The notes beneath the pieces are model-generated. The model saw only the letters and a list, made by a program, of their open reading frames with translations, had not been told where the DNA came from and ran no database searches. The position numbers were made by a program, and so were the translations under genes. From a virus, in IMG/VR virus record IMGVR_UViG_3300026882_000104: a DNA stretch of 32,382 nt; one strand, given 5' to 3'. Position 1 is the stretch's first letter. Each line of letters starts with the position of its first letter. This document shows, piece by piece, positions 16,395-24,229 of this stretch.

Positions 16395-16407
16395 GTTTTT
16401 TCACCCA

Positions 16408-16481
16408 TGGACGCGCTTTGCCTCACCTGTATGGTGAGTTGCCTCCCCCACACCGCGTAGAGGTGGCGTCCAACGTGGAGG
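16408..16481 (-). ncRNA. HDV-like ribozyme fold 1 (C1 variant)
   Basis: P1 CCTCCAC/GTGGGGG, P2 TGGACGC/GCGTCCA, P3 ACC/GGT, L3 TCTACGC, P1.1 CT/AG (covarying), GCAA, P4 CTCACC/GGTGAG, J4/2 GCAAA. Confidence 0.75.
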
Positions 16482-16501
16482 AAAAAAAGAGGAAGGTTGG
16501 T

Positions 16502-17542
16502 CTATTCATCACCCCCTTCCTCGAAATGCACAATTTTGTAGACCTCGTAGCCGTGGAAGTCTTCGATATACACTATCTCCGCTTGACCTCCCTCGTCTTC
16601 ATCGCTTGCACCCAGCTTTGCCCACTTGACCACTGGGCGGTACCCTTGTGCTTCTAGTCGCTTCACTTCCTCCAACGCTTCGGGTGAAGGGCACGAACGG
16701 TCGTATAACTCCCACTCATCGCGTCCGTCGAACTTGTACACTATGTAGCCTGGGAGCTCTTGAGCCACGCGTTCAGTGATATACATGCGCTGGCAGTCGT
16801 ACCCCCTCGTGAATGCTTCCCGCAGGTGTTGACTACCGTGTGTCTTTATCCACTGTGCTTTTTCATGTTCCTCAGCCTCTTTCTTTGCTTGTTTTTTCTT
16901 CCGTTCCTCTTCGCGCTCTTCTACTCTTTTTATTAGCTCAGTCACATGGTTGAGAGCCTGCTCGACAGTTATTTGATTAGTTATGTATATATCCTCAGTA
17001 TCGCTCGAGTCACCGAAAGTGTATGTGATAACTAGCTTGTAATACTCCCATCTGTTATCCTCGCTCACTGTCACGTTGGGGAACTTTGCAAGAATTGCTT
17101 GTTTGATTATTGCTTGTTTCTCCGCGAGCTTCTTTTGTTCTTCCTTCTGCTTCCGTTCCTCTTCCTCTTTCTCCTGTTTATATTTGGCCAAGCGCTGAAG
17201 GTAGTCCGCGTAGGCGTCATCAACAGTTTTCCCCGCTAGAACAAAAGCCGTGTAGTCAAGCTCCACATTGAAACTTTCAGATTCTTTTAGGTACCCTTCC
17301 CCATCCACGTCTACACCATCCAACGCCTGTGAATCGATTGGCACTTGAATTACTAGACCCTGCCTTTCAACTTGGAAGCCTTTTCTTAACGCTTCCAAAC
17401 GCTGTTTACTGTTCAGTGGTAACACCACTTTTACAGTTTTCACCGAAACCGCTCCCGTAGCACTCGCTACGGTAGACCCCGCACTCGCTGGGGTCGCACT
17501 ACTTCCCATGGGCGCACTTGCGCCCTTTTCTTCCGTCGACAT
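16502..17542 (-). CDS. Hypothetical protein with charged coiled-coil segments
   Basis: 346-aa ORF with GGTGA SD and E/K-rich helices. No family recognised. Confidence 0.7.
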   Translation of the reverse strand: MSTEEKGASAPMGSSATPASAGSTVASATGAVSVKTVKVVLPLNSKQRLEALRKGFQVERQGLVIQVPIDSQALDGVDVDGEGYLKESESFNVELDYTAFVLAGKTVDDAYADYLQRLAKYKQEKEEEERKQKEEQKKLAEKQAIIKQAILAKFPNVTVSEDNRWEYYKLVITYTFGDSSDTEDIYITNQITVEQALNHVTELIKRVEEREEERKKKQAKKEAEEHEKAQWIKTHGSQHLREAFTRGYDCQRMYITERVAQELPGYIVYKFDGRDEWELYDRSCPSPEALEEVKRLEAQGYRPVVKWAKLGASDEDEGGQAEIVYIEDFHGYEVYKIVHFEEGGDE

Positions 17543-17555
17543 GGGTTTTTCACCT

Positions 17556-17627
17556 TGGCACGTTTAGCCTACCCCTTGTGGGGTAGTTGCCCGCCCCACA
17601 CCACGAGGAGGTAGTGCCATGTGGGGC
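17556..17627 (-). ncRNA. HDV-like ribozyme fold 2 (canonical)
   Basis: P1 GCCCCAC/GTGGGGC, P2 TGGCAC/GTGCCA, P3 ACC/GGT, L3 TCCTCGT, P1.1 CC/GG, GCAA, P4 CTACCCC/GGGGTAG, J4/2 GCTAA. G1 immediately follows a U6 tract. Confidence 0.9.
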
Positions 17628-17633
17628 AAAAAA

Positions 17634-22991: not shown

Positions 22992-23404
22992 GAGCCAGAC
23001 CAGACCCCCTCCACCACGAGAAGGTTCCGACCCTGGAGGGGAAAAAAGATTTAGAGTTTGTTGATAATGTTTTCGAGTCTATTCATAGCTGATACATCGT
23101 TGAGCAACTCGTCAAAGGGATTCTTTGAACTAGGCACTGTACGACTATACGTATCCCGCGCTTTCTCGACGAGCTCACGAAAAGCGACGGGATAATCACC
23201 AGTTGTAACAGCCCACGTATACTCGACAAGCTCATCCGTTACTAGCGTTATTAGTAACGCGGTTGTATATTTTGTTTTGGCTGCATAGATGTTTATTTCG
23301 TCTCCTTCCTGAGTAGTGAAGGAGAAAACTGGACGAAGCTTGGGTATGCTAAAGTTTTTCGTGGACATATTTCTCACCTATGGTCGGATTCGCTAGTCTG
23401 GCTC
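22992..23404 (-). ncRNA. Split/circularly permuted HDV-like fold whose halves flank ORF 23051-23377
   Basis: Upstream half 23404-23382: GAGCCAGAC-TA-GCGAA-TCCGACC. Downstream half 23041-22992: CCCCTCC-AG-GGTCGGA-ACC-TTCTCGT-GGT-GGAGGGG-GTCTG-GTCTGGCTC. P2 (7 bp) and P4 (9 bp) between halves are perfectly complementary. Confidence 0.65.
23051..23368 (-). CDS. Hypothetical protein, paralog family A copy 3
   Basis: ATG 23368 after GGTGA (track starts at GTG 23377). FSFTT.EGDEINIY...VEY...NPF. Confidence 0.7.
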   Translation of the reverse strand: MSTKNFSIPKLRPVFSFTTQEGDEINIYAAKTKYTTALLITLVTDELVEYTWAVTTGDYPVAFRELVEKARDTYSRTVPSSKNPFDELLNDVSAMNRLENIINKL

Positions 23405-23605
23405 TATCCCGGCTTGGGTAGAAAAAGCTGATGTGGGGGTCACCTCTTCCTTCTGGAAAGAGTCAACCCCCACTTCCCAGGTCGAAGCCCGTATTTACGG
23501 GCTTCACGTAGGACTTCGCGCAGTTCTCTATCCATTCTCAACACCAGCTTGGGTTTTACCCAAGCCTTCGGGGAGCCATTGACGGAGCTTTTCCACGCCC
23601 CCAGT

Positions 23606-23666
23606 CAGCCGACTCCAAAAAAAAGGGTGGAGTTTCGCCCCCCGGCACAGGGGCTCATCAGGGCTG
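23606..23666 (-). ncRNA. Type I hammerhead ribozyme
   Basis: Stem I CAGCC/GGCTG, core CTGATGA, stem II GCCCC/GGGGC, GAAA, stem III CTCC/GGAG, cleavage triplet GTC (predicted cut after 23611). Confidence 0.85.
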
Positions 23667-24089
23667 TTACGCTAGACTATTGACGTAGTCGAGAACTTGA
23701 CGCAACTCATTTTCAGAAAGGGTCTTAAGTCTCTCCAGGATTTGCTTGACCAATGGATTGGTAACATTACGAACTGCCGGATTGACGTGAGAATGATAGA
23801 AGTGGCTGGCTACTGAAGCGAAGTTTCTACCATCGGTGCTCCACTTACAAATGGAGCACACGTAAAGAGTTACAGTAATGCCGTAGTCTTTGATGGTCAC
23901 TTTTTGAACTGTGAACGCTTTGTTTTTGATGTCATCACTAATATGCGTGCCGTAAAAGTGTCTTACTACGACTTCTTTGTAATTGTTGATGTAGCTGCAT
24001 GCCGAACACTTATACGTGTAGTTTGGTGCCTCGCCCTGCATCTCTACCCATATTTTGGGCAGAGACGTTAATTCAGGTATTTCGGACAT
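23667..24089 (-). CDS. Protein with two C2H2-like zinc fingers
   Basis: CSAC..HFYGTH and CSIC..HFYHSH. ATG 24089 after GGTGA. Confidence 0.75.
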   Translation of the reverse strand: MSEIPELTSLPKIWVEMQGEAPNYTYKCSACSYINNYKEVVVRHFYGTHISDDIKNKAFTVQKVTIKDYGITVTLYVCSICKWSTDGRNFASVASHFYHSHVNPAVRNVTNPLVKQILERLKTLSENELRQVLDYVNSLA

Positions 24090-24102
24090 GTTTTTTTCAC
24101 CT

Positions 24103-24205
24103 GGCCGCTGGGGGCTCTGTGGAGCCCCGTTAGTGCTAGTTAGAGCTCTTCTAATTGGCTCTTCCTTCCGCCCCCCGCCACGTGGAGGCGACCACCATGG
24201 GGGGC
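24103..24205 (-). ncRNA. HDV-like ribozyme fold 5 (variant with extra hairpin before P2 3' strand)
   Basis: P1 GCCCCCC/GGGGGGC, P3 GCC/GGC, L3 TCCACGT, GG, imperfect P4, CTAA, inserted hairpin GGGGCTC/GAGCCCC, weak P2 TGGT/GCCA. Confidence 0.6.
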
Positions 24206-24229
24206 TAGAAAAAAAGGTTAGAATTGGGG

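Follow-up and report, generated by a model that had tools for sequence, protein, structure and literature searches.

The 32,382-nucleotide (nt) IMG/VR virus record IMGVR_UViG_3300026882_000104 (the whole stretch is hereafter the window) carries five RNA folds, e1 to e5, that resemble the self-cleaving ribozyme of hepatitis delta virus (HDV) and lie on the sense strand between consecutive, tightly packed genes. All genes at about 14-25 kb are encoded on the minus strand, and all five folds were found on that strand, within 1-2 nt of the coordinates originally predicted from the letters alone. On sequence grounds, e1 to e4 are strongly supported as canonical HDV-like ribozymes, and e5 is a remodelled variant. 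Comparison with relatives shows, at the level of sequence, that the structure is under selection, is placed in the sense orientation and occupies a fixed position between a U tract and a Shine-Dalgarno (SD) motif. The folds are probably genuine self-cleaving ribozymes residing in the accessory-gene operons of an archaeal viral or integrative element, where they would cut read-through transcripts into single-gene messenger RNAs (mRNAs); the division into capped monocistronic mRNAs can reasonably be inferred from their position and conserved catalytic core.

Inspection of the sequences by hand reveals a shared plan in e1 to e4, namely a P1 of 7 bp, a P2 of 6-7 bp, a P3 of 3 bp closed by a 7-nt loop (L3), a P1.1 of 2 bp and a P4 of 6-7 bp, with GCAA in the P1-P4 junction (J1/4) and GC(U/A)AA, bearing the candidate catalytic cytosine, in the P4-P2 junction (J4/2). 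In each of the four, P1 crosses P2, P3 and P1.1 lie inside, and P4 follows, forming a nested double pseudoknot. The helices of e1 are P1 CCUCCAC/GUGGGGG, P2 UGGACGC/GCGUCCA, P3 ACC/GGU, P1.1 CU/AG and P4 CUCACC/GGUGAG, with J4/2 GCAAA; those of e2 include P1 GCCCCAC/GUGGGGC, P2 UGGCAC/GUGCCA and P4 CUACCCC/GGGGUAG, with J4/2 GCUAAAC. In e3, P2 is AGGCGC/GCGUCU and P4 CUGCCUC/GAGGCAG, while e4 has P1 ACCCCAC/GUGGGGU, P2 UUGGCGC/GCGCCAA, P3 GCC/GGC and P4 CUGUGCC/GGCACAG. The L3 of e4 (UCCUCUA) has a U at the equivalent of HDV G25, where e1, e2, e3 and e5 have G. The core motifs of the class in the Rfam alignments are L3 CCUC..CG.GG, then (G/A)GGCAAC, then GGC(U/A)AA, and the GGC(U/A)AA of e1 to e4, which includes the equivalent of the J4/2 cytosine C75, aligns with the GGCUAA of both relevant Rfam models.

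These models are RF02682 (HDV-F-prausnitzii) and RF00094 (HDV), whose gathering scores are 44 and 50 bits, respectively. The window was scanned against Rfam with cmscan twice, first at the curated gathering thresholds and then at a permissive E-value threshold. The search at gathering thresholds returned no match at all because the best scores stay under the gathering score, which is a curated cut-off and not a structural property. The permissive search upheld the claim of five HDV-like folds on the coding strand: RF02682 matches all five (34.6-42.5 bits, with 23.5 bits for the fifth) and RF00094 three, all below threshold, end to end for e1 to e4 and over the 5' part for e5. A family model (R1), in which neither P2 nor P1.1 is modelled as pairs, was also built and applied, without filters, to the plus and minus strands of the entire window. 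It recovered e1 to e5 and one related element consisting of a 5' half only (22982-23041, minus strand, 25 bits), with nothing on the plus strand and nothing inside the open reading frames (ORFs) of the window. That this exhaustive two-strand search turned up nothing but the five folds and the half-element, all on the minus strand, excludes chance resemblance. As e1 to e4 belong to the R1 seed, their R1 scores are not independent evidence, which comes instead from the Rfam matches and the comparative data.

No relatives of the window were found in the INPHARED phage set by DNA or protein, or in IMG/VR by the MoxR protein encoded in the operon. Exact-protein look-ups of MoxR homologues (86-89% identity) led to two related metagenome contigs, L121 and L122 (L numbers throughout denote loci in such contigs), with HDV matches in the same intergenic slots and with helices that differ in sequence yet remain paired. 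A metagenome scan with the family pattern then matched at least 118 contigs, and the same element is present in at least 91 after filtering; R1 gave 176 matches at E<0.01 in 455 kb spanning 100 of the related loci. Among GTDB genomes, one per species, the family core pattern followed by GGTGA gave four matches, none of them archaeal. The family thus appears confined to viral or metagenomic contigs, unless the pattern used for GTDB was too strict.

Covariation was assessed in an alignment (A3) of 66 distinct copies by counting over the full pseudoknotted structure. Copies had been collected with a search pattern that prescribes the P1 core, CC/GG in P3 and GGCNAA but places no constraint on P2, P4, the P3 closing pair or the P1.1 pair. 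The proposed pairs are formed in 93.7% of cells, compared with 38-51% after displacement of the partners by 1-3 columns, and 14 of the 25 pairs show changes on both sides. Compensatory changes occur in P2, P3, P4 and P1.1, with covariation at six of seven pairs in P4 and five of six in P2, despite the mis-registration of one subfamily by MAFFT. The P3 closing pair is intact in every copy (A-U in 35, G-C in 26 and G-U in five), and the informative P1.1 pair, C-G in 56 and U-A in nine, has no broken instance either. The latter bears out the predicted swap of CC/GG for CU/AG in the P1.1 of e1, whose L3 has UCU with AG where the other folds have UCC with GG. In a register-free test of P2, the mean best run was 5.97 with the true partner versus 5.20 ± 0.115 with shuffled partners, a statistic that does not translate into a probability because the related sequences are not phylogenetically independent. 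Individual cases range from identical copies of e1 in L164 and L192 to an orthologue of e4 in L122 with a wholly different P4 sequence in which pairing is kept. Every copy lies on the coding strand, and the 46 G-U cells in the alignment indicate that the structure belongs to the sense strand, i.e., to RNA rather than duplex DNA. The earlier proposal that a double pseudoknot is under selection is hence strongly supported for e1 to e4 by the Rfam matches and covariation, and only partly for e5.

The surroundings of the folds are equally constrained (Table 1). The intergenic gaps hold just a stop codon, an oligo-U tract or the 3' end of a tRNA-like RNA, the ribozyme, 0-3 nt, GGTGA and a start codon, the last placed 6-7 nt after GGTGA in the window. 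As predicted, e1, e2, e3 and e5 directly follow a U tract, beginning 0-3 nt past a run of U6-U7, and e4 follows a tRNA-like RNA detected by ARAGORN, which it abuts; the U tract of e1 is reached 12 nt after the upstream stop codon, and the U-rich tracts of e3 and e5 contain U7. The predicted spacing of 1-3 nt to the SD applies to e1 to e4, and needs amendment for e5, which abuts its SD. Across 97 distinct family contexts, an SD-like motif lies 8-13 nt past GGCNAA in 93, and in 82 an SD and start codon lead into an ORF of 40 codons or more. Upstream, 76 contexts have a tract of at least five T within 16 nt, 19 have a tRNA-like 3' end and two have something else. In a contrast set of generic HDV-like matches from IMG/VR, mostly from one large metagenome, the corresponding figures are 13 of 49 for SD with ORF, four of 49 for an upstream tRNA and none of 49 for a T tract. 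No TATA-like hexamer occurs in the 80 nt upstream of e1 to e4 (a TATATA lies about 45 nt upstream of e5), and in the absence of such a hexamer or of room for a promoter in the gaps, the ribozymes would be made only by transcription continuing from the previous gene.

Two observations concern the gene calls and the U tract. The program-listed ORF starts at GTG 22214 and 23377 (minus strand) fall inside GGTGA SDs and are artefacts; the actual genes are probably 21922-22203 (TTG start, 93 residues), 21699-21920 (73 residues, with an SD overlapping the previous stop codon) and 23051-23368 (105 residues). A role of the U tract in masking the A-rich spacer between SD and AUG until cleavage was also considered and rejected, the best run being 6.17 as against 6.15 with shuffled partners, i.e., with no partner specificity.

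Table 1. Positions of the HDV-like folds and of the signals adjoining them in the window
Feature	Position	Strand	Predicted cut	Basis
e1, HDV-like ribozyme, 74 nt	16408-16481	minus	between 16482 and 16481	RF02682 37.9 bits (16409-16481); RF00094 not reported; R1 73.9 bits
e2, HDV-like ribozyme, 72 nt	17556-17627	minus	between 17628 and 17627	RF02682 42.5 bits (E 2.7e-5 in 10 kb); RF00094 43.1 bits; R1 83.0 bits
e3, HDV-like ribozyme, 74 nt	22219-22292	minus	between 22293 and 22292	RF02682 39.7 bits; RF00094 30.8 bits; R1 88.9 bits
e4, HDV-like ribozyme, 74 nt, directly 3' of tRNA-like RNA	22709-22782	minus	3' end of tRNA-like RNA (22782/22783)	RF02682 34.6 bits (22708-22782); RF00094 34.9 bits; R1 83.5 bits
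e5, HDV-like variant, about 104 nt	24102-24205	minus		R1 37.1 bits over 24139-24205 (E 7e-7); RF02682 23.5 bits (24148-24205, partial); RF00094 not reported
U7 tract between stop codon of gene 16502-17542 and e1	16482-16488	minus		read from sequence
U6 tract directly between TGA of vWA-like gene (17634-19418) and e2	17628-17633	minus		read from sequence
U-rich tract (CCUUUUUUUCUU) before e3	22293-22304	minus		read from sequence
U-rich tract (CCUUUUUUUCUA) between B116-like gene (24230-24553) and e5	24206-24217	minus		read from sequence
tRNA-like RNA, 3' part, perfect T arm, no usable anticodon loop, abuts e4	22783-22858	minus		ARAGORN
GGTGA SD of gene 15987-16394, 2 nt past e1	16401-16405	minus		read from sequence
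GGTGA SD of gene 16502-17542, 1 nt past e2	17550-17554	minus		read from sequence
GGTGA SD of 93-residue gene 21922-22203 (TTG start), 3 nt past e3	22211-22215	minus		gene re-call
GGTGA SD of gene 22325-22693, 3 nt past e4	22701-22705	minus		read from sequence
GGTGA SD of gene 23667-24089, abutting P2' of e5 (0 nt)	24097-24101	minus		read from sequence

The variant e5 has canonical P1 (GCCCCCC/GGGGGGC), P3 (GCC/GGC), L3 (UCCACGU) and P1.1 (GG) elements, together with a P2 of UGGUC/GGCCA. After P1.1 there is an inserted hairpin (AGAGC/GCUCU), and a second hairpin (GGGGCUC/GAGCCCC) occupies the position of P4. Its J4/2 reads C-AG-Y, so that the sole catalytic candidate is the C of the non-canonical CCCCC-AG-Y that precedes GGCCA. 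Seven relatives have the same architecture: P1, P2, P3 and P1.1 are present in them but invariant, as is the terminal GGCCA that pairs with UGGUC; the closing pair of the inserted hairpin is A-U, G-U or G-C, giving one compensatory pair, and the linker between the hairpins is variable, often with UAAC or UGAC at its end. From its sequence, we take e5 to be an HDV-like ribozyme in which J1/4 has acquired a hairpin and J4/2 is altered, and put the chance that it still cleaves itself at about one half. A shorter fold of e5 (P4 AGAGC/GCUCU, J4/2 ACUAG, P2' CACUA) was rejected, as its P2' candidate is unconserved in the relatives, in which the GGCCA past the second hairpin is invariant. RNAalifold, which cannot represent pseudoknots, returned a nested fold unlike HDV for e5, and only the hairpins of the P4 domain were taken from its output.

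The gene content places these elements in an archaeal virus setting, in keeping with the original prediction. The gene at 24230-24553 encodes a homolog of the B116 protein of Sulfolobus turreted icosahedral virus (2.5e-26), and the operon includes a MoxR AAA ATPase, whose named relatives are archaeal, with a vWA-like partner. Elsewhere the window codes for an archaeal-type RFC small subunit (251 bits), a D12 methylase, a DUF3987 protein, a Sak4-like protein and, at 25547-26125, a tyrosine recombinase of the XerA type that also resembles integron integrases. Judged from these genes, the window is an archaeal virus or integrative element, and a hot-spring origin is a guess based on sample names and the B116 domain. 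A search with the flanking glycosyltransferase for a clue to the host yielded a single homologue only.

Comparison with the related contigs by BLAST also points to exchange of genes at the ribozymes. A conserved block extends from the gene for a 267-residue protein (20915-21718) through the MoxR and vWA-like genes, stops at 17537-17561, the 3' edge of e2, in nearly every relative, and homology returns at 16487, the 5' edge of e1. L121, L128, L146, L191, L211 and L227 lack the unit comprising e2 and gene 16502-17542 or have something else in its place, and in L127 a different insert of 1.2 kb stands between the positions of e2 and e1. Ribozyme subtype and downstream gene are shuffled among contigs. 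Homology blocks have 107 internal endpoints at 15-25 kb, and 35 of these are no more than 20 nt from one of the five ribozymes; the expectation is 6%, and the approximately five-fold enrichment is to be taken as an indication and not as a test. This comparative evidence supports the gain, loss and swapping of units of ribozyme, SD and ORF between related viruses at ribozyme repeats. The suggestion that these units are mobile gene cassettes accordingly finds backing from block ends at ribozymes, from units that are present, absent or swapped and from three paralogues, in the form of a DNA-level consequence of the repeats. The paralogues are genes 15987-16394, 22325-22693 and 23051-23368 (minus strand), ribozyme-led members of an uncharacterised family of 105-135 residues (BLASTP E 2e-13, 1.6e-13 and 8e-6), and an N-terminal motif K-N-x...S-D-x-G-G-A-T is common to several cassette genes. 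In L231 (8041-8115) and L202 (4035-4108), a 5' part of the e1 subtype is joined to a 3' part of another subtype, and P2 is either weaker (best run 4) or paired in a different register; judged by their sequences, these copies look like the products of crossovers inside the ribozyme.

These observations suggest the following scheme. The polymerase would read through the oligo-U tract, an archaeal-type termination signal, and transcribe the ribozyme, whose double pseudoknot would fold once the P2' strand has been made. The J4/2 cytosine, by analogy to the class, would then catalyse attack by the 2'-OH of the nucleotide before position 1. The upstream RNA would finish within its U tract, at approximately the 3' end that termination would produce, and would carry a 2',3'-cyclic phosphate. 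The first nucleotide of the downstream RNA would bear a 5'-OH and belong to a compact, GC-rich pseudoknot located 0-3 nt ahead of the SD. The outcome would be single-gene messages with defined, exonuclease-unfriendly ends and a translation start insulated from upstream sequence; candidate benefits are uniform 3' ends, protection from exonucleases, insulation of the SD and graded polarity. In the case of the tRNA-like RNA, e4 would generate the 3' end in the same manner, much like theta ribozymes acting on phage tRNAs. In the DNA, the conserved ribozymes of about 75 bp could serve as portable homology for the exchange of units of ribozyme, SD and ORF.

Several points weigh against the interpretation of the folds as active ribozymes that process read-through transcripts. 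Even the best Rfam scores are under threshold (42.5 versus 44 bits for RF02682 and 43.1 versus 50 bits for RF00094), the cleavage chemistry is attributed to the folds from their class membership, and the scheme presupposes that the polymerase of the host reads through U6-U7 tracts. The constancy of the P1 core, the P3 CC/GG and GGCNAA carries no evidence of selection, since it was fixed by the search pattern; the shuffled comparisons draw on sequences that share ancestry, and the breakpoint enrichment rests on overlapping, related contigs. The first pair of P1 in the 66 copies is A-U in 32, G-U in 13, C-G in nine and G-C in seven; in HDV, the G1-U37 wobble at this place aids metal binding. The U at the G25 equivalent is shared by e4 and its subtype, all other subtypes having G, and might make the e4 subtype slower. 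Lastly, e5 has neither the GCAAC of J1/4 nor the C-N-A-A of J4/2.

Some of these features would fit folds that have kept the HDV architecture but lost cutting, and that act before SDs as stable 5'-leader pseudoknots, whether as a block to exonucleases, a translation enhancer or a protein-binding site. The position 0-3 nt before the SD is kept as tightly as the fold itself, the HDV-like ribozymes of the R2 and L1Tc retrotransposons have been reported to promote translation initiation (PMC6765202), e4 lacks the G25 equivalent and e5 the canonical J1/4 and J4/2. This explanation is nonetheless unlikely, as e1 to e4 keep the J4/2 cytosine, the L3 cytosines, a covarying P1.1 and the GCAA junction, which would not be needed for structure alone, and as the fold takes over precisely where the U tract or tRNA-like RNA stops, a place at which a cut would be useful. 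Slightly less probable again is a primary role at the DNA level, with the RNA fold secondary, the repeats acting as recombination sites comparable to integron attC for the neighbouring tyrosine recombinase, or as plain homology. To this could be ascribed the five-fold enrichment of block endpoints at the ribozymes, the variable presence of cassette units, the XerA/integron-integrase-like enzyme at 25547-26125 and chimeric copies with mismatched P2 strands such as that of L231 (best run 4). Yet the 46 G-U pairs would be A-C mismatches on the other strand, the core sequence is closely shared with HDV ribozymes from unrelated organisms, and the elements always lie in the sense orientation at a fixed distance from the SD. 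Moreover, homologous recombination at any 75-bp repeat yields the same breakpoints, so that exchange would be a by-product of the RNA role and not its replacement.

It is more improbable still that theta-like maturation of non-coding RNA is the real task of the family and that the mRNA-linked copies are duplicates without a specific role. While e4 and 19 of the 97 contexts abut a tRNA-like 3' end without a spacer, and scission of tRNA 3' trailers by HDV-like theta ribozymes has been validated in gut phages (PMC10879173), about 78% of the contexts follow the U tract of a protein gene and not a tRNA-like RNA. The copies at U tracts keep covarying helices and fixed SD spacing, which implies that selection also operates in the mRNA context. 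There is hardly any likelihood that a chance resemblance, or a generic GC-rich repeat of the kind seen in miniature inverted-repeat transposable elements, was mis-scored by the HDV models: although all Rfam scores are under the gathering thresholds, four full-length matches by two independent models within 8 kb, on one strand and in one context, together with covariation in several helices including both pseudoknot helices and the lack of further R1 matches in the window, are difficult to reconcile with it. Self-cleavage between genes is therefore the reading retained here. A broader and distinctly more doubtful version would recognize a probably thermophilic archaeal virus lineage in which the HDV-like ribozyme is the standard boundary of accessory genes, and the succession of ribozyme, SD, ORF and oligo-U is at once a unit of RNA processing (with 5'-OH and 2',3'-cyclic-phosphate ends that RtcB could ligate) and of DNA exchange, with e5 and split forms derived, as possibly the first HDV-like family tied to Archaea.

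Among known ribozymes, those of HDV (RF00094) and Faecalibacterium prausnitzii (RF02682) have the same nested double-pseudoknot topology of P1, P1.1, P2, P3 and P4 as e1 to e4 and the same core letters as the folds of the window (L3 UCC/UCU..CG, (G/A)GGCAAC and GGC(U/A)AA), and the consensus P1.1 of the latter is CU/AG, as in e1. In contrast to both, the present family occurs in archaeal virus-like hosts, in many paralogous copies per genome and in a fixed layout of U tract, ribozyme and SD; it scores just below threshold, its first P1 pair is mostly A-U, and e5 differs by a hairpin insertion and by a J4/2 that is not canonical. Theta ribozymes, minimal HDV-like forms that lack P4 and stand at the 3' ends of tRNAs, have a role so far limited to gut Caudoviricetes; the phages carrying them infect Bacteroidota and Bacillota, and their ORF-linked copies were left unexplained (Kienbeck et al. 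2024, PMC10879173). The e4 subtype resembles them in beginning directly after a tRNA-shaped RNA, whose 3' end its scission would create. However, e4 has a complete J1/4 and a 7-bp P4 that covaries across relatives, it follows a tRNA mimic without a normal anticodon loop (ARAGORN) rather than a real tRNA, and most members of its family follow protein genes.

The closest precedent in genomic placement is furnished by hammerhead ribozymes. Tandem hammerheads flank genes in polycistronic prophage RNAs and cleave in vitro and in vivo, prophage-associated examples being those of Clostridium scindens, Azorhizobium caulinodans and Agrobacterium tumefaciens, and in the archaeal viruses HF1/HF2 a hammerhead stands 13 nt before the start codon of a helicase, with a mapped 5' end no more than 3 nt from the cut (Perreault et al. 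2011, PMC3088659). In these systems, self-cleaving ribozymes flank single genes of a viral transcript, as the folds of the window probably do, and in HF1/HF2 the ribozyme stands directly before a start codon. The difference is that a hammerhead stays mostly on the upstream product and an HDV-type ribozyme wholly on the downstream one, and that the operon of the window has both classes, including a type I hammerhead. The RNAs of the R2 and L1Tc retrotransposons have a 5' HDV-like ribozyme that frees the 5' end, stays as a leader and is reported to help translation initiation (review PMC6765202). Unlike the family described here, R2 and L1Tc are retroelements of eukaryotes, each has a single ribozyme, and initiation does not depend on an SD. 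Synthetic insulators of the RiboJ type are engineered bacterial parts derived from hammerheads, placed directly upstream of the ribosome-binding site (RBS) to remove variable 5' context; by analogy, the present family would be their natural, HDV-type, archaeal counterpart.

Searches of the literature on HDV-like ribozymes in connection with operons, archaea, archaeal viruses or hot springs did not turn up a description of such a family, key reviews being outside their reach. The novelty originally suggested hence has to be narrowed: the principle is already published for hammerheads in prophage operons and HF1/HF2 (PMC3088659) and for HDV-like ribozymes abutting tRNAs in gut phages (PMC10879173), and what was not found in the literature is the HDV-like class in an archaeal setting. 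The HDV-like family in the related metagenome contigs is apparently large and undescribed, and would fill the archaeal gap with well over a hundred natural variants rich in covariation. Most small ribozymes still lack a known biological function, and the family could provide a natural system for the role of intergenic self-cleavage in mRNA stability, in uniform 3' ends at leaky oligo-U terminators and in RBS insulation. It also suggests that conserved ribozymes may double as recombination handles for viral accessory genes. Further, compact, GC-rich and probably heat-tolerant ribozymes placed before an SD could be useful parts for genetic engineering in archaea and thermophiles.

The hammerhead of the window is a complete type I element at 23606-23666 (minus strand), located right after the TAA of gene 23667-24089. 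It has stem I CAGCC/GGCUG, core CUGAUGA, stem II GCCCC/GGGGC, GAAA and stem III CUCC/GGAG with a U8 tract in its loop, and its predicted cut falls after GUC, between 23611 and 23610. It is kept in L122 (a CUGACGA variant with a 7-bp stem I) and in L150, and Rfam yields only a weak partial match (RF00008, 20.2 bits). Downstream of the cut, the stretch 23439-23540 (minus strand) could be a basic ORF of 33 codons with its own GGTG, or a structured RNA; it contains an 8-bp hairpin (GAAGCCCG/CGGGCUUC) that is kept in L122 with only the loop changed. The tRNA-like RNA preceding e4 is part of a larger one (22783-22989, minus strand), reported by ARAGORN as a tRNA with a 2-nt "anticodon", in whose loop a 6-bp hairpin capped by a tetraloop can form.

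The half-element recovered by R1 is part of what appears to be a split form. Its 5' half (22990-23041, minus strand), located after the U tract of gene 23051-23368, comprises P1, P2, P3, L3 UUCUCGU, P1', GU and a P4 strand. The 3' half (23382-23404, minus strand), just before the SD of the same gene, comprises P4' GAGCCAGACUAG, CGAA and P2' UCCGACC. The two halves co-occur in at least 11 related contigs at a spacing of 354-699 nt with differing genes in the interval, and no covariation was seen; a weaker 3' partner in cis for the 5' half is possible near 22890-22915 (CCACACCAG ... UCCGA). A one-piece compact HDV-like ribozyme of this subtype, without the GCAA junction, is found in L210 (11447-11513), with P1 CCUCCUC/GAGGAGG, L3 UUCACGA, GU, P4 CUUCC/GGAAG, CGAA and P2' GCACC.

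Two type I hammerheads about 125 nt apart (1526-1610 and 1652-1740) and an HDV-like match (7583-7641) are present in the 68-kb contig L134. Additionally, a second, unrelated HDV-like group occurs in L135, L160, L175, L186, L190, L195 and L206 (GC about 75%), with P4 CUCC/GGAG and J4/2 GGCGAA, located 10-25 nt before a GGAGG-type RBS and start codon and in up to three copies per contig (L186). The existence of this GC-rich group suggests that HDV-like ribozymes placed ahead of an SD extend beyond the virus lineage of the window.

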